In this document: one piece after another, positions 7,365 through 39,251 of the stretch
How the letters are laid out: the number at the start of each line of letters is the position of its first letter
How positions within the stretch are numbered: the stretch's first letter is position 1
IMG/VR virus record: IMGVR_UViG_3300032309_001546
Coordinates: 81,920 to 145,919 of that record
DNA from: a virus
DNA: 64,000 nucleotides
Strand: one strand, 5' to 3'
Position numbers and translations under genes: made by a program
Notes under the pieces: generated by a model
Database searches by the model: none
What the model was told of the DNA's origin: nothing
Seen by the model: the letters and a program-made list of their open reading frames with translations, nothing else

Positions 7365-7439
7365 TGTGCCCGACTGGACTTGAACCAGTGACCTACGGCT
7401 TAGAAGGCCGTTGCAACTATCCAACTGTGCTACGGGCAC
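7365..7439 (-). tRNA. tRNA-Arg (anticodon UCU), no encoded CCA
   Basis: GTGCCCG/CGGGCAC acceptor, D arm, ACGGC-CTTCTAA-GCCGT anticodon arm, ACTGG-TTCAAGT-CCAGT T arm. Confidence 0.93.
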
Positions 7440-10897: not shown

Positions 10898-11023
10898 TCT
10901 CCAGTAAAGAGGTAACATTACCTCTGAGGTTATAAAAAGTGCTCCAGTTTACAGACATGGAGCAAGGTCACGGGACACCATTATTTGTGCTCCCCTATAC
11001 TAGGCTGTTTCTCACCTAGTAAT

Positions 11024-11094
11024 TCAATCATATGGGAATCGAACCCATAACTAGATATCCATAATGGTATATCTAGCGTCACCAGACTAATCAA
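11024..11094 (-). ncRNA. tRNA-like mini-element 2
   Basis: TATGGG-TTCGATT-CCCATA T arm, CTAGATAT/ATATCTAG long stem, TCTGGTGA D-like loop, G-U-rich acceptor. Confidence 0.5.
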
Positions 11095-11140
11095 AAGGGT
11101 ACGGGTCGTCTTATTTGCTAGCGTGCGAACCCCTTCCCAG

Positions 11141-11350
11141 TCGTTACTAGCGAACTAGTAACCACCCCATGTCTATATAACTACTAGGGCAGGGGTCCCT
11201 AATAATTAGCCCATGTTTACTCTCATTACTCGCGGCAGGGCTCCGCCAGTAATAAACCCTATGTTTATCTCGTTACTAGAAGCAAGGGACTAACTAGTAA
11301 CCACCCCGTGTTCATCTTGTCCATTAGTGGCTGAGGCCCACTAACAGCCA
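11141..11350 (-). repeat. five degenerate hairpin units joined by RTRRACAYRGG linkers
   Basis: GTTACTAG/CTAGTAAC stem occurs twice; linkers TAAACATGGG, TAAACATAGG, TAGACATGGG, TGAACACGGG. Confidence 0.65.
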
Positions 11351-11551
11351 GCCTATCTTTATAGCCAGGTTTGCAACCCTGACACCCCTAGGTTTCCATG
11401 AACGGTAGGCGCGTTCATGTGTTTCTAGAAGGATTAGAAGGTGACGTCTTGCAGTACGAACAATAGGGTTTACATCCCCTACTATTCGCAATGTAACCTG
11501 CGTGACGCCGTAAACTTGTGAGCATTTTATAGACCTACTCAGGTCTGAGGA

Positions 11552-11881: not shown

Positions 11882-12272
11882 CTATCTCTCTATCTCGCAT
11901 TAGGACACTAGCAGGGTCACTACTAGTTACGAGTCTATCAGCCCAAGAGGAGGCTTATCCAAATCGTAATGCGGAATTGGCAACCGCACCTGTCTACTTA
12001 CACTAGAACCCGACAGGCCCTTTCTAGTGCTTTGATACCCGACAACTACTGGTGTGGTATCTACTGGAGTCTTGAGCCCAGTCTACTCTCCTCCTGGGTA
12101 CGCCTAACTAGGCTCACCATGCTCCCCCGAGGTTGGGAACATGGGTACGGGGCGCGTAACTGCCCCTTCCCAGTTTTTATGTTAAGCGGACTGGGAACCG
12201 CCCCTGTCTGATACATACCAGAAGCCGACAGGCCTCATCTGGTACGAGTAGCGGTAGCTACTATCCGCCATG
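11882..12272 (-). ncRNA. candidate structured ncRNA with two related H-type pseudoknots
   Basis: No minus-strand ORF; consecutive hairpins; repeated loop GGCCTGTCGG with downstream AGACAGG. Confidence 0.55.
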
Positions 12273-12401
12273 TGAGGCGAGCGCAGCGAGCCTAATAGAA
12301 TCCTATTACCTGGACTCTGTCTGGCCATACTAGTAATGCAACTATTTTTGGCCGACCCTAGTAAAGGGGTTTCCCCCCGAGTAGGGGGGTTTCGTGGGGG
12401 T

Positions 12402-12445
12402 AAAAAAGTTCCCCTCCCACACTGTAAGTGTGAGAGGGGGGTTCT
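12402..12445 (-). terminator. intrinsic terminator of the SSB-like gene
   Basis: CCCCTCTCACAC-TTACA-GTGTGGGAGGGG then AACTTTTTT. Confidence 0.75.
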
Positions 12446-12925
12446 CTAGTCCCAGTCGCCAGCAACAGGGGCGGACTTGCGGGCGGCAGGCTTGGCGGCG
12501 GGCTTGGCAGGCCTCGCGGGAGCCTTGGCAGCGGGCTTGGCGGGTGCCTTGGCGGGCTCCTCGACAACACCGTGACGACGCATAAGCGCCTTCTCGGTGG
12601 CCAAGAGACGAATCTGGGCCTTGCTGTACACGATGAGCCTGGTGGCGTTGTGCCAGGCCTTGTCATCGCTCTGCCAGGACTCCGTCTCGAGGCCTGCCCC
12701 GTCGATGTGCACGAAATTGTACCCGCTCTCGTCCGCCTTTGCGACGAACCAGTTCACGAGCTCCTGGCCGACCAGACGCACCCGCGTCCAGTTGGTGTCC
12801 TCCGTCCCGTAGGACGAACTGACCGAGAAGTCCGCGTACTTTCCGCTGGCCCCGATCACGGGCTGCTTGCCCATGTAGCCGAAGCCCGAGACCTTGAGGG
12901 TGAGAAACTTGCGATTCTGTTCCAT
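12446..12925 (-). CDS. divergent SSB-like OB-fold protein
   Basis: TNWTRVRLVG and LETESWQ match the SSB pattern; AKPA linker; acidic-aromatic tail GDWD; GGAG RBS. Confidence 0.65.
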   Translation of the reverse strand: MEQNRKFLTLKVSGFGYMGKQPVIGASGKYADFSVSSSYGTEDTNWTRVRLVGQELVNWFVAKADESGYNFVHIDGAGLETESWQSDDKAWHNATRLIVYSKAQIRLLATEKALMRRHGVVEEPAKAPAKPAAKAPARPAKPAAKPAARKSAPVAGDWD

Positions 12926-12969
12926 TGACGTTCTCCGTGGTAAGTGAGCCAAAGGCGGCTCATCATGAA

Positions 12970-13140
12970 AGGCGAGCGCAGCGATGCCTGTGCTGCGGCG
13001 TTGTTGCTGTTGCCTGCGTAGCGCAGCGGAGCAGGCTGTGTTGCTACCTGCGGAGCGCAGCGAAGCAGGGTAACCACGTAGCGCAGCGGAGTGGTGTGTC
13101 CTGTGGTTCTGATGAGCGTAGCGCAGCGGAGTGAATCAGA
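12970..13140 (+). repeat. cluster of five GC-GCA-GC triloop hairpins with GA/GNA internal mismatches
   Basis: 12970-12989, 13013-13035, 13047-13069, 13073-13095, 13108-13140; single copies at 6019, 8033, 11807, 12275. Confidence 0.85.
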
Positions 13141-13211
13141 GGCGAGGACTCGGCGCAGCCCAGCGGAGTATCTGGACTTTTTTACGACTATTTGTACTAT
13201 TTTTGTATTAT

Positions 13212-13238
13212 AGAAAGAATAGCCCATTGCTGGGCTAC
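13212..13238 (-). terminator. intrinsic terminator of the giant ORF
   Basis: TAGCCCA-GCAA-TGGGCTA then TTCTTTC. Confidence 0.8.
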
Positions 13239-13250
13239 TCAATCTAATGG

Positions 13251-16200
13251 CTACTTCTTACCCGTGATACGGTTAAGACGTGCCGCGACACCGGCCTTCT
13301 TCTCCGAGGGAGCAGGGGCGGGCTTCTCTTCAGCCTCAACCTCGGCGTCGAAGTCATTGGGATCGATGAAGATAATCTTCAGGCCCGACTCTTCAGCGTA
13401 ATCAACCGCATTCTTTGTACCGCCAGTGCTGCCATCCCAGACAGCAATGACGATATCGGCGCAGTCAATCATCTGCATGTTACGGCGCTGCATGCAGAAC
13501 TTGTCTTCGCCATAGGTCTTCTCGCTGACCTGGACGACTTCGCTGGCAACTTCCAGCATGTTCCAGTAGCGCTGCTTGGCTTCGCGGGGCCACATAGCCT
13601 CCTGCTCTACACAGGGGATCATGACCGTGAACGGGATACCCATCTCGTGCGCAATCTCTGCCGCATCCTGGTCAACGCCAAGGGCACCGCCAGTGATTAG
13701 CCAGAGCTTCTCACCGTGCTTGGCAAGACCACGCTCAAGCTGAGCCGCAATCTGTTCACGTACCCAGATGCGCTTCTCCGCATTGGGATTGTATCCGCCG
13801 ATCTTGTCGGGACGGTGACCAGTGAAGGCCACAAAGAAGTACTCCGTCTCTTCGGCTTCAACTTCCTCAGTTGCAGCCGCGATCTTAACCTTGAAGGGAT
13901 CGACATACAGCATACCGGGCTTGTAGTCTGCATACCCTTCGGGGCGGTTGTTGTGGGTAGACTTCGCGCCCGCAGGAGGATTCGGCAGAGTGCTGACATC
14001 CCGCTTCTGGATGTAAAGCATTACTCCATCAAGTCGGGCTTCGTCATACCAGGCTTGAGGGCCCTTCTGGCGGATCTGCCACTCGCTAAGGTCAACGCTA
14101 TCAGCATCAAACTCGATGTAGGGGCCATGGTCCCCGTACACAATGCGTGCGTACTCGGTTGCAATAATGCTTCCATTCGGGGTTTGGATTTCCCCATCAA
14201 AGCCCTGACCATCCTCACGGAGTCCGAGTTTGGCTTCGACTTCACGCTTGTCGGCTTCGCGATTAGGCAAACCAAGCGTTGTGGACTTGAAGTCTTCGGA
14301 CTCTTCGTCTTCGGCAACAGGGCACACAGCGGCCATCGAGGGGCCATTGTCTTCGTATCTGGCTTCGCAGGTCGGGCAGAGACCGGCCACGAAATCCCCC
14401 TCGACTTTGCAGTCCTCACAGGCATTTGTGCAAATGCGGCAGCCAGCGCCCTCGCACACTTCGCACACAGATGTGGGGATGGACTCTTCTGCTTCTTCCT
14501 CAGTCTTGTTGGCAAGGCGCAGCAGGACGTCAGCGTGGCAGGCTTCGGGTGCACAATGGCAAATCAACGACTTGCCAGTAAGTTCTCCGAGGCTATCCAT
14601 GAGATTAACCTGTGCCTTCACCCAAGCCTCGTACTTGGCAATGACTTCCTCACGGTTGCCATCGCGGCCAAGGACGAAGGGATTACCCCACTTGCTGGGA
14701 CGGCCAACGTATACCGCACCGGAAGGAATATCCTTATCTGCCCGGTTGTAGACGGCAGGTGCAGCGTTAGCAACGACCGGAGCGCTAGCCTCAGTGGCTT
14801 CAGACTCTTCGTCTTCGCTGTCCACCCAGCAATCGGTGTAATCGAAGCGGTCGCTGCTCTTGGCCTTCTCGTCTTCCTCAAAGACCTCGGACTCTTCCTC
14901 TTCGTCACCGTACTGGCTAGGGTCGAAGTCCGGGTTCTCTTCACCGAAGTCCGGCTCTTCTGCATCTTCCGGCTCGGGCATCTCGTCAGCGTCCTCCGAG
15001 ATGTCATACTCGTGCGAGGGCTCATCCTCGTAACCCTCCTCGTACGTATCCTCTTCAGGCTCATCACCAGAGAAGACATCGTTGAGATCCTCTTCGCCTC
15101 CACCCTGAGGACCGTTGTCGTCGCCAAGGAAGGTGAGGATCAGGAAGCTGTTCAAGCCCTGAGGCGCGAACCTGGTGCCAACAGCCACGGTGCGACCCAT
15201 GACAGTTTTACCATTCTCGTCCTTGGTCTTGATGTCGGGGTTCCACTCGGTAACCCACTCACGCTCCACAAGCTCTGCCTTCACCGCAGTACCCGGGAAG
15301 ATCTCGATCAAGCGACGCAGGAAACCGAATGAGTCAGCAGCTTCAAGCGTGCTCATAGCGTTGAAGCTGTCGAGCTCAGCCTGCGCTTCTGCGATCTTTG
15401 TCTCGCTGGGCTTCTTGGCCTTCTTCAAGTCAGCCAGTGCGTGACGAAGCTCCTCACCCTTGTTCTTCCGACGAAGCTCGATCTGACGACCGATTTCGCT
15501 GACAGTCGCAAGCTGACCCTCAAAGCCATTGGCCTCTCGACCATCGCTGATGCGCACGCCGGGCAGGCTGAGAAGACCATCGATCCCCCAGCCAAGCTTC
15601 TCGCCGTCACCGCCGAAGCCACCGCAGTTCTTCTCACCACGGATGTAGGCGAGGAGAGCTTCTGCGTCCTGGCGTACCGTCGGGGTACCACCCTTGCCCA
15701 AGTAGAGAGCAAGCTGACGGGCTTCACCGAGGCTGTTATCGTCGAGGCCGTTGATTGCGGCAATGCCATTGCTGGACATCCAGTCCGTGAGGTATTCCCA
15801 GGGACCGCCGACGAAGAACGCAGTGGTAGCGATACCGCCATTCGCCTTAAGGTTGCCATTGGCATCCTCGGTGATGGTGATCTCAAGAGCCTGTGGCTTC
15901 GCATCCTTGCCGACCTTCTTGGCCTTCTCAGCAGGCTGCAGGTAACGATTGGCAAAGGCAAGCCAGGCCATCTTCACAGCAGCGTCGCGGTCTTCAGCCT
16001 CAAAGTTCTTGAGGATGTACGACTCGATCTGGGAGTCTACGAGTTCAATCGCCGCTCTGATGGGCATCGCCGAGTAGGCCAGCCAGAGTGCCTTCTTGGC
16101 ACGCGAGATGTTGCCGCCAGCCAGCATTGCACTGACGACCCTGTAACGACGGTTGCTCTCGTGGCCTGCAGGAGCCATGATCTTGTGGATCAGTTCCTGG

Positions 16201-19200
16201 TTGGTCCAAGCCTGGAGGTTCTTGAAGCTACCGGGGCTCCAGTTCCAGTAGAGCCAGGCCTCGGTCTCTTCGCCAGGGGCCTCGTCTTCCGTGCGACCAA
16301 GCCAAGCAGTGAGCGTCTGGTGCAGGACGTTCTGGCGACCAGCTTCCCACTGAGCATTGGCGAGGGATTCGACCTCATCGATGCACCACTGGCGGTAGTC
16401 AGCCCAGAGGGTGTAGACCTTCGAGCTAAGCTCACCAGCGACGAGGTGGGTAACGATCTCGCCTTCTTCGTTGCGGACGGGAGCGGTCACCTTCGTGCCA
16501 TTCTCGAACAGGGGCTGCATGTCTTCACCGAGGACAGCAACACGCTTGGCCGGGTCGACGAACAAGCTCTTCGCACCAAGGCTGAGCTTCCGCAGAACGG
16601 CAGGCACGAATGCCCAACCTTCACGGCCCTTGCCTTCGGTGACAAGGTCAAGCCAGACCTGGTAGACCTGCACCATCCGGTAGGATGCCCAGGCTTCAGC
16701 GTAACCCGTCATCTTGACCGCTGCGTCAACGATGTCGGACAACGTCACGCCGAAGAGGAGCGTCTCGGAGATCTCCTCACGAAGCTCCTCGAGGAAGGTA
16801 GGCAGCTTCACCCAGCCAACAGCCAGGGACATGCCGTAGATCTTCGCGTTAGCGACGATACCAATCGCCTTCTGGAAGACGTTCTCCTCCATGTTCATCA
16901 CCGACTCGTACAAGCTCTCGTGGCTCATACCAGCAGTGGTGGCTTCGACCGGCGCTTCGGGCTCCGTAACGGCGGTAATGACGAAGTTCTCCGTCTTCAC
17001 CTTGAAAGCCTGACCGAGGATCGTGGCCGCGTTGAGGCGGGTCCACAGGCTCTTGTTCTCCGGGATACCGGCGACCATCTTAGCACGGAGCGCGTTCTTC
17101 TGTGCACGCTTCTCGGCGTTGAGCTTCGCCTTATCAGCAAGAGCGGTACGCCAGGCCAGACCCTTCACGATGAGCATGGCAAGCTTACCACGCGCAGTGG
17201 GGCAGCGGTCATCATAGTCCATGCCTTCGTTTGCCTGGAGCAGGAGGACTACCGTGTCTCCGCTCGCCGTGGTGAACATGATCACCATACGGCCGCTTAC
17301 GCCGATGATGAAGATATTCAGGCTTTCCGGCAGCTCACGGATCTCCGCAACCGTGCCCGACGTTTCGCCGGTGGGGTTACGGAAGAAGATTGCCAGGTTG
17401 GGCGCGCAGTTGTTCTTCGCCCAGCGAGCAAAGTTGGTGCAGTAGACAATAAGACGACCATCAGCCGTCTTCGTCTCCAGCTCCATGGTCTGCTTCGCCT
17501 TCGTAGCAACCTCCTCAGAGTGCTGCCCTTCAGCAATCCAAGCCGCATGCAGCATCGGCCAGAGGACCGGGATGGGGTAGGTTGCCCACAAGTCGCTTCC
17601 CTCCTCGGTAACAGGAGCGATCTTCATCGAGCCAGGCTCAATGTTCTTGCTCAAGGTGCCAACCAGCTGCTGTGCCAGCATGCGGAAGGGGAGAACAGGG
17701 ATTCGCATCGCGCCGAGGAGCTTCGCAAGAACGCTGTTGCGGTTGTCCTCGACCTTGGCCTCTTCGTCGCCAGCAACGAAGTCGTCAGCATCCTCGTCCA
17801 GACCCTTCAGGAAGTCGGGGAGACGCTTCTTGGCGTAGGCGATGTAGCCAGCAATGAGCTGGTAGAACTCCTTCGAGTTGACCTCAGCTCCGAGAAGCAT
17901 AAGGATCGACTGAAGCGACATAACCGCCTTCTCCTTCGTGAGCGCCGCAGTGCCGGGGATCCAGCAAAGGGCATAGTCGTTCTGGGTAGCGGACCACTCG
18001 GTCTTCACCTCACTGGCAATGATGCAGACGCCTTCAGGGAAGTACCGAGCCGGAAGCGGGATGCACATACCCTTGATCAGACCTTCGCTGGTCAAGATAC
18101 GAGCCACCATCGGAGCGGTCAGACCCATGGCCTTCGCCACGTCGGCACGGACAAGCACAAGGCCGTCGAAGAACTTGACCAGTGCAGCGGCAATCTTGCC
18201 CAGGTCCAGGACCTTACCCGGCAGGACAACGCGGGCAGTAACCCGCGAGATCCAGTACGAGTCAGCATACTTAGCAATGCGGCCCAGGGTCTTACCCTTG
18301 AACCGCAGAGCCGCCATGCTGACCTTCTTGGCTTCGGGCGTGCAGTAGAGGGTCATACCCTTCTGCAGAACCCGAATGGTGACAAGGCCAAGCTTCTTAG
18401 CGTTGGCCACGGCATCGGTATCGTCGTCAGCGACAACGAGACCTTCGAGGAGTCCAGGGCTATCGTCAGCCGCAGGACTAGTAGCACACGCCTCCTCAAG
18501 GAAGGCTGCGAACGTGCCGGGAGTGCATACCCGGACTTTCTTGTTACCCATCTTGTTCTCCTTAGGGGTGGGTGCCCCGGTGTGCTTCGTCGAGGCCAGG
18601 ATGATTCCCGGCTTAACGGAAGCTTTGGTGTCGTTGTTGGTGCTGGTGGCTTCACCGTTTAGGTCATTGTTGACCTCGGCAAAGATATCCTCGCAAGCCG
18701 CCATAAGACGAGCTGCGATGGCTGAGATGGCGTCGCTGGGGATGCCGGCATAGAGGCGGTCATAGCCACCTCTCATGGTCAACTCGGTACCGTCCGCCTG
18801 GCAGACATTGCAGAATTGGCCCTTTGAGCCAAATCCTGCAACACCGCAACCGACGCAGGTCTCGGGCCCGCAGTCGGCTTCGCTGGGCTTAGCCTTAACC
18901 ATGGCCTCGAGCTTCGTCGCAAGGGCATTGCCCACTACAACGAACAGGATACCGACGATGCCGACGACAAACAGAAAGCCGGGTCCTGCAAGGAACTCGG
19001 CCGGGCTCTTAGCCCAAGCGGCTTCGACCGCCTGGCTGAACGTGGGTGCTGCAGCGGCGAGTACGGCGATAAGCGGGGAGCTGGCCTTCACCGCATTGCG
19101 GCGTTGGCGGCTCAGTTCCCGCTTTCTGGTGCGCTTCTGGGCATCCTCAGTCGCCGTCATGGCGAAGAAGACGCTTGCGGTATCCTGTGCGGACTTGCCC

Positions 19201-20048
19201 GTGTTACCACAGACAGCGGCTTCGATGCGCTTGGCAAGGGTGGTCTTGATGACCACAATCTTAGCGCCGATAGCTACGGGCTTCACAGGAGTAACCTGCT
19301 TGGCCTTTGCCGCCGCGATGTGCGCCGAGAAGGTCATGGCCTTCGTGACGCGGGGGAATTTCGCGACGGGCTTCGCAGCAGCCTTAGCGACGGGCTTCGC
19401 AACGGGCTTGGAGGCAGCCTTGGGAGCAGGCTTTACAGCGGGCTCAGCGACGGCTTCCACTGCCACTTCCGTGACAGCAGCAACCTCGATGGCAGGGGCA
19501 GGGGCAGGCTTCACAGGAGCCTTAGCGACAGGCTTGGCAATTGCCTTCGGAGCGGGCTTGGCGACAGCCTTGGGGATATGGACCCCCTTCGACCGCAGCC
19601 AGCGGTCAAGGCGGATAGTGGTCCAGCAGTTACGCCGGGCCAAACGGGCTGCATGGCGGGTAAGCGCCTGCAGCCTGAGCGACGCCGCCGACTGGGCAGC
19701 AACAGTCCGCCGAAGCGGAAGGACGATGGCGTATACGTTCGCCAGAAAACGGGCCACGAAGGCCAAGATGACACGGACCATGGGATGGTCCTTACCCTCC
19801 GCGAGGAGGATTGGGGTGGTCGGCTTCACCGAATTGGCAAAGCGGACCACGAGGGAAGCGGGGATGCGGGGAGCGATGCGGGTTGCAGCCTCCGTGACCA
19901 GCACGAAGCTGGTGACGAAGAAGCTGACTAGGGCAGCGGCCTGCTGCGAAAGGGTGGGGGCCAGCTGGGCCTCCACGGTCAGCGCCGTTGCGAAAACGGC
20001 GAACACCACAGCCACGATGGCGGTGATGGCGAGTTGGATCCGAGACAT
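13251..20048 (-). CDS. 2265-aa multidomain protein: membrane N-terminus, putative two-barrel (YonO/QDE-1-like) RNA polymerase core, acidic linker, DUF4326, Zn ribbons, unknown YADYK domain, YspA/SLOG (DUF1273)
   Basis: Ordered motifs FDG..., R...G.IKG, FFRNP, GMDYDD, IGIVAN, IVDAAVKMTG; YVGRPSKWGNPF...CHCAPEACHADVL; FTGHRP...GGALGVD...RN..MID...AVWDGS.GGT; AGGAGG RBS. Confidence 0.75.
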   Translation of the reverse strand: MSRIQLAITAIVAVVFAVFATALTVEAQLAPTLSQQAAALVSFFVTSFVLVTEAATRIAPRIPASLVVRFANSVKPTTPILLAEGKDHPMVRVILAFVARFLANVYAIVLPLRRTVAAQSAASLRLQALTRHAARLARRNCWTTIRLDRWLRSKGVHIPKAVAKPAPKAIAKPVAKAPVKPAPAPAIEVAAVTEVAVEAVAEPAVKPAPKAASKPVAKPVAKAAAKPVAKFPRVTKAMTFSAHIAAAKAKQVTPVKPVAIGAKIVVIKTTLAKRIEAAVCGNTGKSAQDTASVFFAMTATEDAQKRTRKRELSRQRRNAVKASSPLIAVLAAAAPTFSQAVEAAWAKSPAEFLAGPGFLFVVGIVGILFVVVGNALATKLEAMVKAKPSEADCGPETCVGCGVAGFGSKGQFCNVCQADGTELTMRGGYDRLYAGIPSDAISAIAARLMAACEDIFAEVNNDLNGEATSTNNDTKASVKPGIILASTKHTGAPTPKENKMGNKKVRVCTPGTFAAFLEEACATSPAADDSPGLLEGLVVADDDTDAVANAKKLGLVTIRVLQKGMTLYCTPEAKKVSMAALRFKGKTLGRIAKYADSYWISRVTARVVLPGKVLDLGKIAAALVKFFDGLVLVRADVAKAMGLTAPMVARILTSEGLIKGMCIPLPARYFPEGVCIIASEVKTEWSATQNDYALCWIPGTAALTKEKAVMSLQSILMLLGAEVNSKEFYQLIAGYIAYAKKRLPDFLKGLDEDADDFVAGDEEAKVEDNRNSVLAKLLGAMRIPVLPFRMLAQQLVGTLSKNIEPGSMKIAPVTEEGSDLWATYPIPVLWPMLHAAWIAEGQHSEEVATKAKQTMELETKTADGRLIVYCTNFARWAKNNCAPNLAIFFRNPTGETSGTVAEIRELPESLNIFIIGVSGRMVIMFTTASGDTVVLLLQANEGMDYDDRCPTARGKLAMLIVKGLAWRTALADKAKLNAEKRAQKNALRAKMVAGIPENKSLWTRLNAATILGQAFKVKTENFVITAVTEPEAPVEATTAGMSHESLYESVMNMEENVFQKAIGIVANAKIYGMSLAVGWVKLPTFLEELREEISETLLFGVTLSDIVDAAVKMTGYAEAWASYRMVQVYQVWLDLVTEGKGREGWAFVPAVLRKLSLGAKSLFVDPAKRVAVLGEDMQPLFENGTKVTAPVRNEEGEIVTHLVAGELSSKVYTLWADYRQWCIDEVESLANAQWEAGRQNVLHQTLTAWLGRTEDEAPGEETEAWLYWNWSPGSFKNLQAWTNQELIHKIMAPAGHESNRRYRVVSAMLAGGNISRAKKALWLAYSAMPIRAAIELVDSQIESYILKNFEAEDRDAAVKMAWLAFANRYLQPAEKAKKVGKDAKPQALEITITEDANGNLKANGGIATTAFFVGGPWEYLTDWMSSNGIAAINGLDDNSLGEARQLALYLGKGGTPTVRQDAEALLAYIRGEKNCGGFGGDGEKLGWGIDGLLSLPGVRISDGREANGFEGQLATVSEIGRQIELRRKNKGEELRHALADLKKAKKPSETKIAEAQAELDSFNAMSTLEAADSFGFLRRLIEIFPGTAVKAELVEREWVTEWNPDIKTKDENGKTVMGRTVAVGTRFAPQGLNSFLILTFLGDDNGPQGGGEEDLNDVFSGDEPEEDTYEEGYEDEPSHEYDISEDADEMPEPEDAEEPDFGEENPDFDPSQYGDEEEESEVFEEDEKAKSSDRFDYTDCWVDSEDEESEATEASAPVVANAAPAVYNRADKDIPSGAVYVGRPSKWGNPFVLGRDGNREEVIAKYEAWVKAQVNLMDSLGELTGKSLICHCAPEACHADVLLRLANKTEEEAEESIPTSVCEVCEGAGCRICTNACEDCKVEGDFVAGLCPTCEARYEDNGPSMAAVCPVAEDEESEDFKSTTLGLPNREADKREVEAKLGLREDGQGFDGEIQTPNGSIIATEYARIVYGDHGPYIEFDADSVDLSEWQIRQKGPQAWYDEARLDGVMLYIQKRDVSTLPNPPAGAKSTHNNRPEGYADYKPGMLYVDPFKVKIAAATEEVEAEETEYFFVAFTGHRPDKIGGYNPNAEKRIWVREQIAAQLERGLAKHGEKLWLITGGALGVDQDAAEIAHEMGIPFTVMIPCVEQEAMWPREAKQRYWNMLEVASEVVQVSEKTYGEDKFCMQRRNMQMIDCADIVIAVWDGSTGGTKNAVDYAEESGLKIIFIDPNDFDAEVEAEEKPAPAPSEKKAGVAARLNRITGKK

Positions 20049-20292
20049 GAGTTACCTCCTAGTCAACGGGGTCCAGCGCGATCTATAGGGAAGCATTCCC
20101 TATGACCGACATACCAGTGTCTTGTAACACACTGGAAGATTTCTGGTCCTTTATGGGAAGGACCCTGTTTAAAACCCTGGCTTTCTGTTCGCTCCGGCAT
20201 TGACCCATACTACCTTCTTGGAAGATACTGGGGTGCCATTCGAACTATCCGGCCCATTGCGACCACCCCTTAGCAGAGAGCTGGTCCACATT

Positions 20293-20323
20293 TTAGCCCA
20301 TAGTAGTGCAACTATTTAAGTAT
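20293..20323 (-). promoter_or_regulatory. class-A repeated motif (TACTTAAATAGT-N0-11-ATGRGYTAA) upstream of the polymerase gene
   Basis: Same motif precedes every unit from 20.3 to 27.1 kb. Confidence 0.7.
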
Positions 20324-20339
20324 CGTACAAAAAATACCC

Positions 20340-21893
20340 TTCCTGGGAAGTTCATTAAAACACTTACACACCCAGTGTGCAGTTTGCTCAACGCATAAAT
20401 TACTAGTCTGATACTTGTTAACAGACCAGCGATCTATACGCCGTGAACCCATCCAGGGACGCCAGGAGCCTTGCCTCCGTCCTGGGATTAGCTTCGCACA
20501 TTAGCATGACATAAAGCGTTTTATCCCTTAAAGGATTCTTGCGCTGCAGTCTTCTTCTCCCACTACATTACTAGACTAGAGGTTCAATGGGCCTCTATGC
20601 TAGGGATCTTGCCGCCGAATTGCGCGAGAAGATATAACCATCCTACTCCTTTTGAGAGCAAGAGCATCTAGTAATTACCTGACCTATGTGTAGTTATCTA
20701 TGGGCAAACAGATCCTAACAAGAACTGAACCTCTGGCAGCGGTTTCTTGTTAGTTTAGGCGTACAAGCGCCTATCCCCTCTTATACGTGCATGCCTGGCA
20801 GTCATCACATACTAATTGGGGGCTGATCTTTTGCTTGCATAGTGATTTGGGTTCTTCTTACCAGTAAGAGCGGCGCTACTCGCTAAAACCAGTATATAGG
20901 GTGTTTATAACCCAATCCAAATGCAAACGGCTCCTCGGTATTTCAACCGAATCACAGCCTTCTACAAGTGTCAAGTGTGGGAGTCAAAGACACAGCATCC
21001 TTCTTGGGACGCTTTGTGTCATACTTCTGTTACGAAGCTAAAGCAACGAATCTCACCATCTCACAGACCAGGTCCTGTCTACACAGTAATCAACTGTATA
21101 GCGGTTATCTGATCTGTCCTCGTTGATTCCTCGTTATCTCTGCAGAAGGGCTACCGCTTAAAGTAGAAATCCTCCTGGATAACTTGGTCCACCGGCCACA
21201 CCTGCTAGAGTGCGCCTACTCTGTCTCACGACAGTTGGGGAATTATGCAGCATTTACTCTGTAAAAACAGGGAAAGGGTTCAGCACTTGCCGCCTTGCTT
21301 AAGGGCGGGAGTTTGCCTATCACGAGATCTGCTTGTGTCGGTTTTGCGGGGTGTTTTTGTTGAGGTTCCCCTTTTGCCTCCTTTTTTAAAGTCCGTACTC
21401 TCTTTCGAGGACAACAGACTTAGTGCGCGTAATCAACGCTTGGGAAAGTTAAAACCCATATAGTCATCTTTGGTGAGGGATGACGCCCTACTGCCGACAG
21501 GCAGACCCCTAAAATCTCTATTAGCCATACTTGACATCCACACCACCGACATATTAGGAGCTTTCGCCCCCGGAAGAACTGTTCCTCCTTGGTGTTTCAG
21601 TCTGTGTTGCAGGCCGTACGAGATCTTAGGTTGACAGTTTTTCTGCTACCGACTTTTAGGGATTGCTCCCTCCGCCGGATTTATGCAGGAACACAGTTTT
21701 GGCTGTTAGCCTAGCTGCTTATACTGTCCTCGTGTCCTCTCCGACCATCCACCTTTGGGCATGGCCAGATACTGCACAAGTCAACGAACCGGTAAGATTC
21801 GTTGCTTATTTTTTATGGGGCGTTAACTACGTGCAAAACCTTGCCAACGCTGATCCCCACATATGGTCACTCCATATGTTTAAGACTCCACTG
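20340..21893 (-). ncRNA. candidate giant (~1.55 kb) structured ncRNA
   Basis: No minus-strand ORF of 60 aa or more; two class-A motifs upstream; dense hairpins with GNRA loops on the minus strand. Confidence 0.6.
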
Positions 21894-22080
21894 TTTAGCC
21901 CATAGTATTCTTTTGACGACTATTTTTGGACTATTTGAGTAAAGTAAAACAATTTAACCCATAACTATACAACTCTTTGAGTATTAGAGAAAAAATAGCC
22001 CTTAACGCGGGCTAGACGTGCTTTTCTGTTCCCAAGAAGCAACTCTCGGATGGGCACCACCCCATCAGGCACCTCCCGTT

Positions 22081-22368
22081 TCAGGGAGACGGGCACTCCC
22101 CATCTTTGAGGTGACGCTTGCTGCGCACACAGCCGTATTCGGCCATGCGAGCCTCCACCTTGCGAAGGTGAAGAGTGTCACCCCAAACCGAGATGTAGGG
22201 TTTATTAGCCAAAGCTCCGAGAAGCCGGCCAATTCCCCACATCACGTCGGAAGCCTCGTCCTTGAGTTCTTCAAGGTTTTTAACCTCGAAAAGCTCTACT
22301 GCCTCTTCGGCAATATGGACGATAGCAACCCGGATGGGAAGCACCTCAAGACATTTACAGAAATGCAT
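22081..22368 (-). CDS. possible MazG-like all-alpha NTP pyrophosphohydrolase
   Basis: EEAVEL...EELKDEASDV resembles EExxE...ExxD; AGGAG RBS. Confidence 0.5.
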   Translation of the reverse strand: MHFCKCLEVLPIRVAIVHIAEEAVELFEVKNLEELKDEASDVMWGIGRLLGALANKPYISVWGDTLHLRKVEARMAEYGCVRSKRHLKDGECPSP

Positions 22369-22526
22369 CTGTAGACTCCTTGTGGTAATGCTGTATGCAG
22401 TACAGCGCTGTGAGTAAAAGGATCTTTACTTCACTGTTTAGCCCAGACTAGTGTACTATTTAAGTATGTTTCAAAGAATGACCCATCTTGCGATGGGTCA
22501 CTCAGTGATGTCTCTCTTCCCTTTCT

Positions 22527-28119: not shown

Positions 28120-29442
28120 TTGATTACTAGTAAGAAGTACTCTGTTTTGGCACACTATAACGACATTAATAAGGCTAATAATAAGAAGCCTAGGTCTTCA
28201 CACGATAATAGTGCTGGGCGGGGAGTTGATAACCCATATAAGAATGCAGAGAGACTAGCTCAACCTACTTATACTGGAACTATCTCTGGACAAGTTATAG
28301 ATCCTTATACTCTTAAGAATAGCTTAGAGTTTTCAAGTAGGGAAGAGGAGATGCCTTTTGACTTGCAAGCTCTTTCTGAAGAAGAAAATGTTAATGTTAT
28401 AGAGAGCGCAAAGGGCCTTCCTACTAGGGGTCTTGCTATCAGTGAGGATAAGTCCTTTACTAAGACTGCTAGTCTCTTAAAGGACTCTAGTCTCGTCTCT
28501 GGCAATCATAATACTAATGGTCTTGGCGGCGTGGAGGCCAGTACACAAATACTACTTGATAGAGTTGGGGAGCTTTTAGATAACGATGAAACATTACTGG
28601 AAAGAGCTGAGCCCCTTGATCATACTTCTTCTACTTCTATCTCTCTTAAAGATGCTTTTCAAAGTGCTTTAGACGCCAGTGATCCTAATACTATAGATGT
28701 TAATGCTTTCTTCTCTAGCAGTAGTCTTGGGACTTTTCTTGGTAGTGATCCTGATCTATATAAGGACTTGCATATAACACCTCAGAGTGCCGCTAGAATG
28801 AGGTCGCATCTTGCCGCCGTTAAACATGGTACTTATGCTAGTGTGCCTCTTATCTGTAAAGGATATGAGAGTTGCCCCATTCGCAGCTCATGTTGGTTTG
28901 CTGTTAAGAAGGACAATGGAAGTATTGATCTTGCCTCTAGTAAATTCCCAGTACTGCAACCTTGCCCGGTAGAAGCTAGTATTCTTCAGGTTAAGGTTAA
29001 GCAATACTGCAGTGAGAACTTTAGAGATATGAATAACATTACCCCTAGTGTTATTAGCTTGGCTACCAAGCTTGCTGAACTAGATATCTATGAGATCCGG
29101 GTTAATATGCTGTTATCTCAAGGTGACAGCCTTGGCGAGGGTAGAGACTTAATGCAGGAGGCCGTGCTAAGTAGCGACTTACATGGTAATCCTGTTAAGA
29201 CTGCGATGAAAGAACATCCTGCTTTTGCGTTGAAGGAACGCTTTCAGAAGATGCGTAGTCAATTGATGAAGGAACTTTTAAGTACTCCAGAAGCTAAGTT
29301 AAATGCGAGGGCTAAGATGGAGTCTACTAAGGTTGAGAGTGTTAGTTCAACAATGACAAAAATGTCTGCTGCATTAAGTAAGATTAATAGTTTAATAAGA
29401 GATAATAAAGATAGTGATCCTTTTGATTACGAAGATGATTAG
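28120..29442 (+). CDS. putative terminase small subunit-like protein (start uncertain)
   Basis: C-terminal EHPAF...MRSQLMKELLSTPEAK resembles P27-type TerS; Cys cluster; heads the packaging operon. Confidence 0.5.
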   Translation: MITSKKYSVLAHYNDINKANNKKPRSSHDNSAGRGVDNPYKNAERLAQPTYTGTISGQVIDPYTLKNSLEFSSREEEMPFDLQALSEEENVNVIESAKGLPTRGLAISEDKSFTKTASLLKDSSLVSGNHNTNGLGGVEASTQILLDRVGELLDNDETLLERAEPLDHTSSTSISLKDAFQSALDASDPNTIDVNAFFSSSSLGTFLGSDPDLYKDLHITPQSAARMRSHLAAVKHGTYASVPLICKGYESCPIRSSCWFAVKKDNGSIDLASSKFPVLQPCPVEASILQVKVKQYCSENFRDMNNITPSVISLATKLAELDIYEIRVNMLLSQGDSLGEGRDLMQEAVLSSDLHGNPVKTAMKEHPAFALKERFQKMRSQLMKELLSTPEAKLNARAKMESTKVESVSSTMTKMSAALSKINSLIRDNKDSDPFDYEDD

Positions 29443-29473: not shown

Positions 29474-32400
29474 ATGGCACAATTTAGTCCGCGAGTAAGA
29501 GCCGCAAGAGACTACATTTTGAATCCCGACATGGATCCTATCAAAGCAGCAAGTGCTTTGTATGGAAAGCATGCTAATGCTAATACCTACTTAAGTACTG
29601 TAGATGCTAGTGTTCGCGGTATTTTCACTGCTAGTACTGCTATTATGAAGGGTACTGCTAGGTTTACTGGCGACGTAGCTAAGTCGCTGAATAAGGTTGT
29701 TAAACCTCGTAAGATTATAGAAAGTACATTAAGTAGGTTGATTGGTCAGAAAGATACAAATGATATTTTAAACTTTACTGATAATATCCTTAAAGAATCT
29801 ACGGATGCTTTAAAGGAGATGGGTAAACAAATATCTATCTTTACAACTGAGTATGCTGCTAATGCAACTAATATGGAATATGGGGGAAGTGCAAGTAACG
29901 TACTTAGAAGTATGAAGACTGCAATGCTTTCTGCTAGTGGATATAGTTTCTCTGTTAATGAAATGATACAGAATACTGTAGTTATAGACATTGAGACCGG
30001 CGGCCTTGGCAAGAATGCCCCGATTGTTCAGATGGCTATGGCAGATATATCTCGTATTCCAAATATGAGTCAAATGACTCCTGATGAGATTAGAGCTTAC
30101 CAGGAAGAGATAGCCAGATTAACTCCTCGTGAGCAATTAGAGCGAGGAATGCTAAGCATGCAGATGCTGCCTGAAGCAGTTCTCAGAGATGATGCTAGAA
30201 CTGCTGCTAATGGAGCTGTACGCACACCTACTTACAATATGACTACACACTTACCAAGGAGTGCTCAGGCTTTCCAAGAGACTTTTGGTGGTTGGGGCTT
30301 GCATACTGAAGGCTATACTATCGGAGACTTTTATCGAGAGTATGCAGATGAAGTAGATCCGTCAGCCGCAGATCCTAATGATCCTATGGCTCGTAGAATC
30401 TCTGATGCTAATATGGCTTCTATTAGAGCAAATCTTGAACAGCATGGTTTTATTTCATTGCAAGATGGCAGAAGACTATATAGTCAGAGAGAAGCGACTA
30501 AGTGGTCAACTATTTTTATGAAGAGGGCCGCAGATGAGAATAAGAATTTAACTGCAGCTAATATTTCATTCGAATCTTTTCGAGTAGGTAAGCTGCAGAA
30601 TTTCTTTGTTGAGGATGCAGAGGTAGGAGTAGATGACAGAGCTGTCAACTTTGTTATTGGCAGAGATCAAATGACACAGGCTGAGAAGGATAAGTTCTTC
30701 CTGAATAATGATCCAGATATTGTTGCTGCTTTTGGCGGAGAACTAAAAGGGCACAAAGATATAAGAGATATGTATCAAGCGACTTGGAAAAGTAAGTATA
30801 AGCTTAATATCTTAGATGAGAATAATTATTACTTTGTAGACCAGTTTAAGACTTTGCAGAACAAAGGAAGAAGCAATGAGATGATAAATCTTTTTCCTGA
30901 GTTTATGCGTCGCCTTGGCGGCGGATTAAAAACTTATGACCAGCAGAACTTGACTAAGATGTTATTCTCTGGGCTAATGCAACTTGACTATATTCCTCAT
31001 AGCCAAGATATCTTCTCAGGTACAGCTATTGACTGGGCGACTAGAACTGCTTTGGGCGAATCAGAAAGTCACTTAGCTTTCTCTGACGTTTTACAGCAGG
31101 CTAGAATCATGACAGAAGGTAAGTTAGGTGACGCGACTTCTGATGTCTATAACATGACTAAAGCAACTGGATCTGCTGCCGTTGGTGACCAGGTAAAGGG
31201 AATGTTTTCTGCGATAAGAGTCTTGCTTGATCCTAAGAGAAAGACCTGGTTTGATTTAGGAAAAATTATTAGAGAGACTGAAGTAAGTGTTAACCATCCT
31301 ATTCAAAGAACAACTGAAGCAGGTCAAGTATTTAATGCTCCTGCTGCGTTAGGTAATCTCCAATTTACTGGAAGTATTGCTGAGGTAAACAAGCAATATA
31401 ACATTACCAAAGAACTATTAAGAATAAATGAGACTGTAGACCATGCACTAGGAGTAGGCAATACTCTATATGACCAGAGAGGAGCGGGATTAACAGAGAC
31501 AATGCCCGCGAGACAACTAGAAGCAAACAGCCCTCAGTTAAGAGAAGGTACAACTATCGAATACAATGGTACTACTTACCAAACACGTGCTAGTATACAA
31601 ACTCCATCTGGCCGAATGTATCAGGTTCAAGGTTCGAATGCTCTTATTCCAGCTCAAGATATAACAATTCCAGCACAGGATGTCACCTGGTTTGAAACTG
31701 GACATGAGCCTTTCTCTCTAGGAAGACAGACAGGACAAAAGCGCCATGAGCTTACAACTCCTGACAGTAGAAGTTTATACATGAGCTATACTACTCATGA
31801 CTATGAGTTGACAGATAGAATTAGAGAGCAACATCAAAGCCATCTTGCAGCAGGAGCAACGGCAGATGAGGCAAATGCAGCAACGAAAGAATGGCTAGTT
31901 GGTCAGTATGCGGAGACAAGAGGTATACAGTCAACTGGTAGAACTGCTCCTGGAATGATTGACCAATTCCGTACTTTAATGGGAATGTTTAATAATCGAC
32001 AAGAAATGACAGATACTTTGCGCTTCCAGATGGAACATGGTAAGAAAGCAATGGATGCATCTATTCATGAACAAGTAAGAGGTAGAGTTGCAGAAGTTGC
32101 AAGACTAGGCAAGGAAGACATTATAACTCCGACACGAGACTTTGTAACCGAAGGCGCAAGAACTGTTAGTGATGTCTTCTCGGGCCGTCGCTCTTTAAAC
32201 GATATAAGCTTAAGTTCTATATCTAATTTGCCAAATGCAATAGTCCAGCAGACTTTTAATGTAGATGCAGACTTTGCAAGAATGTTTACCCGTGTTGCTG
32301 GTAGGCCATTGGCTGTTGCTGGAGCAGTAGGAGCAGTTGCTGGAGCTGTAGGTGCTGGCTATATGGTAGATGGTCCAAGTTGGAAAGCAACTACAGGTGA

Positions 32401-33295
32401 CATTCTTAAAATGACAGGCGAGGAAAAAACAATCCTTGAACAGGGACATCACAAATCTGGTGGCAATCTTCTTGATGTTTCTACTCCTTATCTTGGAGAT
32501 ATACAACATATCAATCCAAATGGCGCAGTACTAACTGCACTAGACTCTAGTAAAGTTGATTATGCGATTGGTGACGGTGACACTGTTGAAGTCTTGTCAA
32601 AAGGCTTTCTTGGTATGGGTAGAAAAAAGCTAGGAAGTATCCGTGTTGCAGGCATTGACACACCGGAAACTTCGCATGGTGGTGGTAATGGACCAGGTAA
32701 TATGCCTTACTCTGCTCAGGGTAAACAGTACTTAAGCAACGTGCTTAGCTCTAGAGAAGGAGCTTATGTTGCTATTGGACCAAAACAGACGTATGGTCGC
32801 GCCGTTGGTCTTGTTGTTGATGAGTCAGGAATTAACTATTCTCACCAGATGGTTGAGCAAGGACTTGGTTCAGTGCTTTATCGTGAAACTCCATTTGAAG
32901 ACTTAATTAGCCAGAAAGATTATAATCGAGCTGAGAATAGAGCAAGAGCTGGCAACAGAGGAATGTGGAGTGAACCATTCTACTATGGTGCACAAAGCGG
33001 GATTGAAGGTAGAGACAGAACTGGTTGGAATAAAATGACACCGACTAATGCTTATAAATTTAACTTTGATAGAAGTCCTGGCACAACTACTGAACAAGTT
33101 GAAAAGATGAGAGAACCAATGGAGATGGCTCATTCTTTAAATAGTATAATTGATACAACACAAGAAGATTTTTTAAATGCTGCAGGCAGTAGCATTGGAA
33201 GAGGTAATCATAAAGCATTGATGGCAGATATGCAACAGATGGCGCTAGCAAATAGCATGCAAAAAAACCGAGGAAGAGGCAGGGAGCGTAGATAA
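29474..33295 (+). CDS. large protein with DEDDh (DnaQ-like) exonuclease motifs and a C-terminal staphylococcal-nuclease domain
   Basis: VVIDIETGG, ANISFE, HLAFSDV; GDGDTV...IRVAGIDTPE...YGR...ARAGNRGMW. Confidence 0.75.
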   Translation: MAQFSPRVRAARDYILNPDMDPIKAASALYGKHANANTYLSTVDASVRGIFTASTAIMKGTARFTGDVAKSLNKVVKPRKIIESTLSRLIGQKDTNDILNFTDNILKESTDALKEMGKQISIFTTEYAANATNMEYGGSASNVLRSMKTAMLSASGYSFSVNEMIQNTVVIDIETGGLGKNAPIVQMAMADISRIPNMSQMTPDEIRAYQEEIARLTPREQLERGMLSMQMLPEAVLRDDARTAANGAVRTPTYNMTTHLPRSAQAFQETFGGWGLHTEGYTIGDFYREYADEVDPSAADPNDPMARRISDANMASIRANLEQHGFISLQDGRRLYSQREATKWSTIFMKRAADENKNLTAANISFESFRVGKLQNFFVEDAEVGVDDRAVNFVIGRDQMTQAEKDKFFLNNDPDIVAAFGGELKGHKDIRDMYQATWKSKYKLNILDENNYYFVDQFKTLQNKGRSNEMINLFPEFMRRLGGGLKTYDQQNLTKMLFSGLMQLDYIPHSQDIFSGTAIDWATRTALGESESHLAFSDVLQQARIMTEGKLGDATSDVYNMTKATGSAAVGDQVKGMFSAIRVLLDPKRKTWFDLGKIIRETEVSVNHPIQRTTEAGQVFNAPAALGNLQFTGSIAEVNKQYNITKELLRINETVDHALGVGNTLYDQRGAGLTETMPARQLEANSPQLREGTTIEYNGTTYQTRASIQTPSGRMYQVQGSNALIPAQDITIPAQDVTWFETGHEPFSLGRQTGQKRHELTTPDSRSLYMSYTTHDYELTDRIREQHQSHLAAGATADEANAATKEWLVGQYAETRGIQSTGRTAPGMIDQFRTLMGMFNNRQEMTDTLRFQMEHGKKAMDASIHEQVRGRVAEVARLGKEDIITPTRDFVTEGARTVSDVFSGRRSLNDISLSSISNLPNAIVQQTFNVDADFARMFTRVAGRPLAVAGAVGAVAGAVGAGYMVDGPSWKATTGDILKMTGEEKTILEQGHHKSGGNLLDVSTPYLGDIQHINPNGAVLTALDSSKVDYAIGDGDTVEVLSKGFLGMGRKKLGSIRVAGIDTPETSHGGGNGPGNMPYSAQGKQYLSNVLSSREGAYVAIGPKQTYGRAVGLVVDESGINYSHQMVEQGLGSVLYRETPFEDLISQKDYNRAENRARAGNRGMWSEPFYYGAQSGIEGRDRTGWNKMTPTNAYKFNFDRSPGTTTEQVEKMREPMEMAHSLNSIIDTTQEDFLNAAGSSIGRGNHKALMADMQQMALANSMQKNRGRGRERR

Positions 33296-36060: not shown

Positions 36061-36062
36061 TT

Positions 36063-39000: not shown

Positions 39001-39251
39001 TACGAAATCAAGGAAATAACTATCTAAGACAAAGACAGATGCAAGGACCCTCATGGAAGAGTGGGCCAAGCGCAGGAATGAGTAGCTCTATGGGTAATAC
39101 AATTAGACAGCGAAGCATTCATGCTATGGAGAATTCACGATTCAATGCAATGAGATCTATGGGCAATGAATCCTATATGATTACAGCTCCGAAAAGCAGA
39201 TATGCTAACTCAACATCAATACACAGTACGGCTCCAATGCTATCTTATTAA
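36063..39251 (+). CDS. Ala/Gly/Pro-rich putative virion protein with C-terminal hydrophobic segments
   Basis: 1062 aa, just upstream of TerL. Confidence 0.65.
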   Translation: MALRRKSLQSPSLFNIPPEAEETFNVYDKQALEIGQSVGGDNRSYFDQMHEIMTKSGHNLVGFESSEADMVNQTLGGMSPSRRLGYGQGTRAHYQNPETGSVRSVINDDLDTDHAVNWMDKEGWEQHQARHAKAARDMGYDLPSLPALNPDGTVARPHHAEAAVGNSPGVSSASSSASSVVDSPPPAPDPVPAPIETKTLEEKKAEVLGQRAKQPQRVPQQHNTWQRTVRDYLADVAKPPEPSADPTKLRAKGGKGFIPTPVRQALTGMGYEIPEPEMPGTPAQGDNPASPAYHSRKQVEEMYGMAEHLAGRDLENEARLRYFNDQRSAGNAPAAPAKLAQGAEKVAQAASSGAPIPQPVSVEEYLSAHNKMINDPSPENKATMERPEYMQTRANEGAAIDKSLMEQAKAATPAGAKIPQAADAPAQAAQKLASTESVPTTSAPASSAAQAADDGPGKFDMGAVPEDRIPKRPKPGELGSQEYVDKQQAEIEERQRAQAKKKYEQLANSDNPRHRAMAEKLKARAEGGNVIKDGKAAGTLAEQPGSTVPKISDSPAEAAQKVANTASVPIETGAAAARKSSLPEGANNLGTTSTPGSNQAGPTTGAQAARSAANMSPPAFGHQGGEDGPGTTRGQAARGARGVDPNLDRSVDRVFGEATNGVANNGAKVAPGAAVRKRRGAGKTGGATGAAAFPSSPAAGAGPVGGANAPAGSPGAAPLSPSAAYQAQVEEAKQARAAKAARAGGGSGAAAAGKATKGSRTNGMLRGMAYNSSLVDRELDLTTRGFVAGIGSIANDLGLNRRVTAYGADGKPSSYMDTFFGTTIRGGTGYAHPLMDDAGRVTWTTAKTVQAATAGWGKHIEDSFQSSTGIMKTMTGIRRSLYNGLGGGSDGFINKMLTKLGGAGTLVAPVLMGATAIADFRQGYKKGGVFGGIAGAGKGIVAGWIMNKVVAAALLNPVTTLIAGGAIAAAAYATYKIFDVRNQGNNYLRQRQMQGPSWKSGPSAGMSSSMGNTIRQRSIHAMENSRFNAMRSMGNESYMITAPKSRYANSTSIHSTAPMLSY

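Follow-up and report, generated by a model that had tools for sequence, protein, structure and literature searches.

The window analysed here spans 64,000 nucleotides (nt) and is the final 64 kb of a single 145,919-bp virus record (IMG/VR record IMGVR_UViG_3300032309_001546). At positions 20340-21990 it contains an interval without any recognizable gene, located between a small gene of 95 amino acids (aa) and a very large one, coding for a 2265-aa protein. Is this interval a spacer, the remnant of a gene, or a gene whose product is an RNA? The initial annotation, made from the sequence alone, had proposed the last possibility: a giant non-coding RNA (ncRNA) of about 1.55 kb, transcribed from the minus strand within a cassette of its own. 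The proposal is borne out: the interval has no conserved open reading frame (ORF), carries frame-breaking insertions and deletions (indels), is predicted to fold with strand-specific stability and features covariation of paired bases. The region from about 21890 to 20330, minus strand, is probably a separate gene for a structured ncRNA of about 1.55 kb, functional and independently expressed.

Coding capacity and conservation of the interval

The longest minus-strand ORF in 20340-21990 is 46 aa long (translation table 11), in keeping with the earlier statement that none reaches 60 aa. Three reassignments of stop codons (TAG=Q; TGA=W, table 4; TAA=Q) were also tried, and none opens a substantial ORF in the region. 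The stretch between 20089 and 21244 is the longest without an ORF of at least 70 aa in the 145.9-kb record; in the remainder, up to 21990, only chance plus-strand ORFs, of 72 and 80 aa, are present. None of the 11 sense ORFs of at least 20 aa found in the window haplotype features a Shine-Dalgarno-like motif; true genes of the surrounding array carry one, as exemplified by AAGGAG before 22368 and GGAGG before 20048. No tandem repeats are present in the RNA region.

Homologous loci were recovered by using the 95-aa gene (22081-22368, minus strand), the upstream neighbour, as a handle: searches with its exact product, and with further proteins of the same 90% cluster, returned contigs belonging to several independent assemblies. 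By blast and alignment (alignment A2), the ORF-free stretch falls into eight distinct haplotypes, whose identity to the window is 92.7-96%. The contigs come from several studies, at least one being labelled as a freshwater metagenome and others being JGI lake-type samples. In all eight haplotypes gene callers leave about 2 kb empty, with the 95-aa gene on one side and a protein of 1826-2265 aa on the other. Within the transcript 26 indel runs are observed, 23 of which are not multiples of three, while 21 involve a single base. Of the sense ORFs that reach 30 aa, none is intact across all eight haplotypes. Plus-strand (antisense) ORFs of 72-90 aa were considered and rejected, since single-base indels shift their frames from one haplotype to another.

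Lack of coding capacity is accompanied by strong conservation. Among haplotypes, the 5' 690 nt of the RNA are 95.8-99.4% identical; the adjacent 95-aa gene ranges from 93.4 to 99.7%, and falls below the 5' part of the RNA in six of the seven comparisons. The gene located further upstream is either 83-86% identical or absent, and for the large gene identity over the initial 900 nt is 74-90%. Changes within the RNA are concentrated in a few patches of its 3' half.

Selection has kept the fold of the minus-strand RNA

The transcript predicted from the lack of ORFs, the indel pattern, covariation and folding energy (20330-21890, minus strand) is composed, for the most part, of two large domains. 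For domain A (21806-21042) the minimum free energy (MFE) is -284.8 kcal/mol, against -225.1 +/- 7.5 for dinucleotide shuffles (z -7.94); for domain B (21041-20488) it is -213.2, against -151.6 +/- 6.3 (z -9.75). For both, the centroid is close to the MFE structure. Stability depends on the strand: the plus strand of domain B has a z-score of -6.81, with a poorly defined centroid, and the most conserved core of the RNA (21632-21324, inside domain A) scores -2.75 on the minus strand and -0.77 on the plus strand. For the whole transcript MFE is -581.7 kcal/mol on the minus strand and -495.2 on the plus strand, and a windowed fold scan favours the minus strand in five of eight windows.

Covariation was evaluated on the eight haplotypes, which are closely related: significance was gauged by controls in which pairing partners are slid or the strand is changed, rather than by a phylogeny-aware test. 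RNAalifold, run on alignment A2, predicts 527 pairs: 71 of them are variable, with 21 two-sided canonical changes and 39 one-sided ones. In controls, where the 3' partners are slid by 1-3 columns, two-sided changes are 0-4 and one-sided changes 14-21. Because RNAalifold itself makes use of covariation, the count was repeated on an MFE structure calculated only from the window's own sequence: of 82 variable pairs, 52 are canonical in all haplotypes (18 two-sided and 34 one-sided, mostly through G-U), against 9-22 of 91-103 for slid controls and 25 of 77 for the plus-strand fold. Two-sided covarying pairs thus number 18-21, depending on the structure used, against 0-4 in slid controls. A two-sequence test, comparing the window with haplotype L123, gives seven compensated double changes out of nine, against 0-3 in controls.

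The covarying pairs are spread over at least ten helices and partition the haplotypes in different ways; in the long-range closing helices, 10 of the 11 variable pairs are still canonical. Compensated cases include GGCU-AAC-AGCC becoming GGUU-AAC-AACC, GUUAUC..GAUAAC becoming GUCUAAUC..GAUUCGAC, and UGUG/CACG becoming CGCG/CGCG. In the hairpin at 20753-20715 the distal stem is replaced, in L143, L144 and L136, by a different self-complementary sequence, while the CUGCCAG loop is kept. Selection has kept this fold, specifically that of the minus-strand RNA, across the eight haplotypes. Two features of the operational class of large ornate structured ncRNAs (longer than 500 nt, non-coding, with a conserved complex fold) are seen here: no reading frame is conserved, and compensatory changes support the secondary structure. 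As to a third, expression as a discrete stable RNA, the sequence offers promoter-like and terminator-like elements.

The predicted structure may be followed from the 5' end. Two hairpins (21817-21879), including an 8-bp CAUAUGG-AGUGA-CCAUAUG stem, lie right after the putative start; they are supported by the fold and by a one-sided change from A-U to G-U at alignment columns 87/107. Domain A (21042-21806, 765 nt) is multibranched in the MFE fold, holds the hairpins with GAAA, GCAA and GUGA tetraloops and is closed by a long-range helix of 17 nt, where 21807-21791 pairs with 21057-21041 (94% complementary). Domain B (20488-21041, 554 nt), also defined by the MFE fold, is closed by a composite stalk of about 57 bp, formed by 21041-20976 with 20543-20488, and includes variable hairpins, with stems that are swapped and still paired. 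One of them is the hairpin with the conserved CUGCCAG loop (20715-20753; alignment columns 1228-1264): its stem, CTAACAAGAA/TTCTTGTTAG, is 100% complementary, and pairs 1233/1259 and 1234/1258 covary. The 3' domain (20342-20457) features a 23-bp hairpin (20443-20389), indicated by the fold and by one-sided, wobble-compatible changes.

Every hairpin listed in the initial annotation is present in the sequence: CTGTC-GUGA-GACAG at 21234-21221, GGGGC-GAAA-GCUCC at 21571-21556, CUC-GAAA-GAG at 21409-21400, UCGGU-UGAAAU-ACCGA at 20950-20935, as well as the stem at 20753-20715 described above. For two further complementary pairs, CAACGAA/TTCGTTG and GACACA/TGTGTC, the sequences are indeed found, more likely as parts of long-range helices. 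The GNRA-type loops (GAAA, twice, GUGA and GCAA) read correctly on the minus strand only, as had been anticipated.

Some additional features of the two domains were observed. Two separate hairpin loops of domain A (at about 21300 and 21158, minus strand) carry the palindrome CUUAAG, the second as UUUAAG in the window haplotype. They could form a kissing contact, within one molecule or between two, a slight hint of homo-oligomerisation, which in RNA-only assemblies such as the GOLLD/ROOL-type nanocages proceeds through kissing loops or A-minor bridges. The segment GGAGGCAAAAGGGGAACCUCAACAAAAACACCCC, at 21362-21385 (minus strand), near-invariant in all haplotypes, features a possible H-type pseudoknot (GAGG/CCUC, GGGG/CCCC) with A-rich loops. 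Over 11 nt the RNA (20708-20698) is complementary to the promoter motif; this was judged coincidental, because the segment is paired inside domain B.

Cassette, relatives and neighbouring genes

The RNA occupies a cassette of 1.6 kb, as proposed. At its upstream end two tandem copies of a promoter-like motif, designated class A, are found by motif scan and alignment. The distal copy (21945-21984, minus strand; ATACTCAAAGAGT at 21984 and TATGGGTTAAA at 21963) results from a 42-nt duplication: it is present in four of the eight haplotypes (the window, L123, L143 and L144) and absent from L166, L164, L137 and L136. The proximal copy (21886-21942, minus strand) is present in all eight, with TTACTCAAATAGT at 21942, invariant CCAAAAATAGTCGTC and TATGGGCTAAACAGTGGAG, and TATGGGCTAAA at 21904; by analogy with other cassettes, transcription would start near 21890. 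At the opposite end lies a terminator-like hairpin, CUUCCCAGGAAGGG followed by UAUUUUUU (20329-20350, minus strand), invariant in all haplotypes. A generic terminator scan missed it, because of the spacing of its tail, and flagged 20381-20365 instead. Directly after it, the motif scan locates the class-A motif of the next, polymerase-like cassette (20292-20323, minus strand; pair 20323/20302).

The cassette belongs to an array of about 17, all on the minus strand, extending from 27119 down to 13208. Each is built in the same way: a short G+C hairpin, starting with GGG and ending in AT(T/C)TTTTCT, is followed by ATACTTAAATAGT, by 0-9 variable bases, and by (T)ATGGGCTAAA..GTGG. A terminator-like hairpin with its T-run precedes every class-A motif of the array. 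The repeated element may represent a terminator with a phage-type promoter behind it. Unit length is mostly 300-500 bp, with one small ORF in each, and the gene content of the array varies between otherwise close haplotypes. The class-A motif is not found in the 174-kb relatives of the phage, and motif scans reveal no IMG/VR phage with multiple copies; a degenerate version of the pattern gave only single chance matches across IMG/VR. These absences suggest that the motif is specific to this lineage.

As for the phage itself, genes for the large terminase, portal, major head protein and tail sheath are found on the plus strand, from about 28 kb onward, and indicate a myovirus-type phage. The nearest named terminases are only 28-30% identical; IMG/VR contains uncultured relatives of 174-176 kb, with terminases 87-92% identical. 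The G+C content is 0.56-0.64 over the polymerase-like gene and its 3' neighbours (12001-20000), 0.46-0.47 in the RNA cassette and 0.32-0.45 in much of the remaining window. A second ORF-free stretch, of 620 nt, is present in the early block (10919-11538). The structural operon is headed by a 440-aa protein (28120-29442, plus strand) with a weak match, below threshold, to PF21769, a virion RNA polymerase domain (E 0.005); the three proteins that follow, of 1273, 921 and 1062 aa (29474-39251, plus strand), have no family matches except for one SNase domain. The protein series starting with the 440-aa one could include a virion-delivered polymerase reading the class-A motifs.

Relatives of the RNA were sought in several ways. 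At gathering thresholds, cmscan against Rfam found only a tRNA (7365-7439) in the whole window; within 20000-22400, with E up to 10, it gave one chance match to a lncRNA (E 0.69, 21.8 bits against a gathering score of 45). Rfam thus provides no match to GOLLD (RF01998), ROOL (RF03087), OLE, HEARO, group I or II introns, RNase P, 6S, tmRNA or rRNA fragments: this settles the check initially proposed on such families and agrees with the impression that no intron core is present. ARAGORN detected neither tRNA nor tmRNA in 19900-22500, nor any tRNA-like module. No similarity was found by blastn against 50,697 phage records, nor any match by BLAST in ten related IMG/VR records. When all fetched loci and the rest of the genome were searched by nhmmer, only the shared promoter and terminator ends were retrieved. 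A covariance model of the conserved 310-nt core (R1) detected only the window's own copy in G000, none in G001-G003 and G006, and none in 32 related loci. Exact-word scans of a metagenome collection returned only an already recovered contig, and scans of IMG/VR none; nothing was obtained by searching related loci with the 2265-aa protein, or by using its N-terminal 200 aa as a bait for truncated gene calls. The lack of matches in Rfam, ARAGORN, phage BLAST and covariance-model searches of related phages points to a new RNA family. Other phages carrying the 95-aa gene, in an 82% identical version or as other members of its cluster, do not have the RNA: the large gene, or further small genes, come straight after it.

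The 95-aa gene is followed by its own terminator (22014-21990). The segment 22100-22299 (minus strand), comprising the 3' half of the gene and the terminator, has a z-score of about -9.3 (25 shuffles), far beyond that of neighbouring coding sequence.

On the other side, the 2265-aa protein (13251-20048, minus strand) had been described as similar to the RNA-dependent RNA polymerase family. Pfam recognizes only DUF4326 and YpsA/SLOG, at its C-terminus. An exhaustive, profile-free search retrieved 20 relatives among 1.8 billion representatives. In their alignment RxP and G-D-x-D-D are invariant (G436, D438, D440 and D441 of the aligned segment), DG and KG near-invariant; the aspartate triad is present, although its spacing, DxDD, is non-canonical with respect to the DxDGD metal-binding loop. 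For residues from about 507 to 1283 an AlphaFold model was obtained with pLDDT 86.5 and pTM 0.84. When it was compared with the PDB by Foldseek, the top 28 matches were all to QDE-1, plant RDR2, crAss-like phi14:2 gp66, P23-45 gp96, P32 gp64 and P74 gp62 (E from 1e-5 to 5e-3, TM 0.23-0.40). At the level of the modelled fold, the earlier description holds: the core, at about residues 500-1290, appears to have the two-barrel (double-psi beta-barrel) fold of RNA polymerases of the QDE-1/crAss gp66 type, with similarity across both barrels. In the distant relatives L170 (5001-12193) and L171 (4244-13655) the core is fused to a PIF1-type helicase, and a separate YpsA+DUF4326 protein and an SSB are encoded just downstream. 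The helicase fusion and the nearby SSB hint that the protein may serve DNA replication or priming, in addition to transcription or in its place. The 240-nt 5' untranslated region (UTR) of the gene (20049-20290, minus strand) is itself structured (z -3.8) and 89-94% conserved, while identity at the start of the coding sequence is lower (74-90%, as reported above).

Possible roles and comparison with known large RNAs

What might such an RNA do? According to the mechanism proposed here, a phage-type promoter would drive its synthesis early in infection, and the product would act as an RNA, not as an antisense or cis regulator. It would be a stable, self-folding architectural particle, resembling GOLLD and ROOL, made either of RNA only or of RNA and protein, able to bind, enclose or sequester a partner. 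This architectural or sequestering mode of action, suggested by analogy, is put forward tentatively. On a bolder reading, the RNA would open a new class of giant phage RNAs, about 1.55 kb long and with two closed domains, forming a GOLLD/ROOL-like higher-order particle or being catalytic in early infection: this is possible, but it is a rather doubtful proposition.

Several points weigh against these proposals. The ends, abundance and timing of the transcript are inferred, and the data point to no partner and no activity. The RNA is limited to one sublineage, and relatives at 82-92% protein identity do without it; it is therefore dispensable for this type of phage. All homologues are at least 90% identical and mosaic, and covariation events are consequently few and not phylogenetically independent. 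The conserved 5' half, moreover, varies too little for most of its helices to be tested.

The alternative that fares best, although unlikely, is that the RNA works as a decoy or sponge, which would titrate some component of the host soon after infection begins. This could be the host's RNA polymerase, the target of 6S RNA, or an RNase, or else a defence protein that senses RNA. The rapid change of the peripheral hairpins in domain B would then mirror an arms race. The surrounding array is hypervariable and made up of small early genes, a setting where host-takeover and anti-defence functions are usually located; this fits such a role, as do the swapping of stems with retention of loops such as CUGCCAG, and the long imperfect double-stranded stalk. 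Yet stem swaps and loop conservation also arise when a structurally constrained RNA drifts neutrally, Rfam provides no match to 6S or any other family, and no known candidate target emerges.

The initial annotation had raised a different role, as a template or scaffold for the adjacent two-barrel polymerase, to which a role as a source of primers may be added. The two are adjacent in all eight haplotypes, the neighbour has the fold of QDE-1 and crAss gp66, and QDE-1 is reported to work on DNA as well as RNA templates (PMC9508822). Adjacency in a single closely related lineage counts, however, as one observation only, and between the two units lie a terminator and a fresh promoter motif. Furthermore, homologous polymerase genes occur without such an RNA in L126, L154, L155, L168, L170, L171 and G001-G003: the search for homologues upstream of related polymerases found none in L126, L154, L168, L170, L171 and G001-G003, and the RNA is not present elsewhere in what was searched of these phages; in complete genomes of relatives, the covariance model of the conserved core detects no copy. 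A template or scaffold role was accordingly not upheld, and is to be regarded as distinctly unlikely.

Slightly less probable still is a cis-acting giant leader, where read-through would allow the RNA to control expression, processing or stability of the polymerase mRNA. The shared strand, the conserved order and the structured, conserved 5' UTR of the polymerase gene are compatible with it. However, an invariant hairpin with its T-run and a complete class-A motif lie in between, relatives have the polymerase gene without the RNA, and a length of 1.5 kb is far above that of any known leader.

That the interval is non-functional, whether as a spacer, as a gene in decay or as palindromes acting at the level of DNA, is very improbable: although no homologue is found beyond one lineage, and although the failure of tblastn to detect any gene remnant in the RNA region of the window, using proteins of relatives without the RNA, would equally be expected for a much-decayed gene searched with the relatives' neighbouring proteins, conservation of the 5' half exceeds that of most coding sequence on either side, the domains have z-scores of -8 to -10, and the pair-preserving changes rely on G-U and favour one strand (52/82 versus 25/77), a bias not expected from DNA palindromes or neutral decay.

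A functional structured RNA, possibly architectural, may be compared with known systems. The long imperfect duplex stalk is shared with 6S RNA, a decoy of RNA polymerase which, at about 180 nt, is much smaller and has no Rfam match here. Very large structured RNAs are rare outside the ribosome, and giant phage RNAs whose function is unknown are few; each new class, among them GOLLD, ROOL and OLE, held an unexpected architecture, most recently RNA-only cages.

OLE is described as a large, ornate, highly conserved ncRNA of about 600 nt, active in a ribonucleoprotein complex (PMC12054373, PMC9723947). The present RNA is likewise large, ornate, conserved and non-coding. OLE, in contrast, comes from bacteria (Bacillota) rather than phages, and its dedicated protein partners are encoded close by; the two are not related by any Rfam match.

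GOLLD and ROOL, which both form RNA-only nanocages (PMC12286853), offer a further parallel: they too are encoded by phages or prophages, very large and multi-domain, rich in GNRA-type loops, with no ORF and unknown function (PMC12286853). GOLLD, furthermore, was first seen in lake metagenomes, and the present RNA comes from freshwater ones. Differences are equally evident. Even at E up to 10 cmscan finds no match, so that the RNA appears unrelated to either, as to OLE; it does not lie beside tRNA genes, as in a tRNA island, but in a cassette among early genes, behind a promoter-like motif specific to this phage; and its predicted fold comprises two closed domains, the stalk of one measuring about 57 bp. 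The greater length noted at the outset is confirmed with respect to GOLLD: about 1.55 kb compared with just over 800 nt, a size exceeded by many GOLLD members, which makes the RNA about twice as long. Its well-defined predicted two-domain fold makes it a good target for cryo-EM and probing straight from sequence, and, as some phages have it while otherwise close ones lack it, comparing them is a natural way to learn the function of such RNAs. Were it to represent a new class alongside GOLLD and ROOL, it would be the largest non-ribosomal structured RNA known from a bacterial virus.

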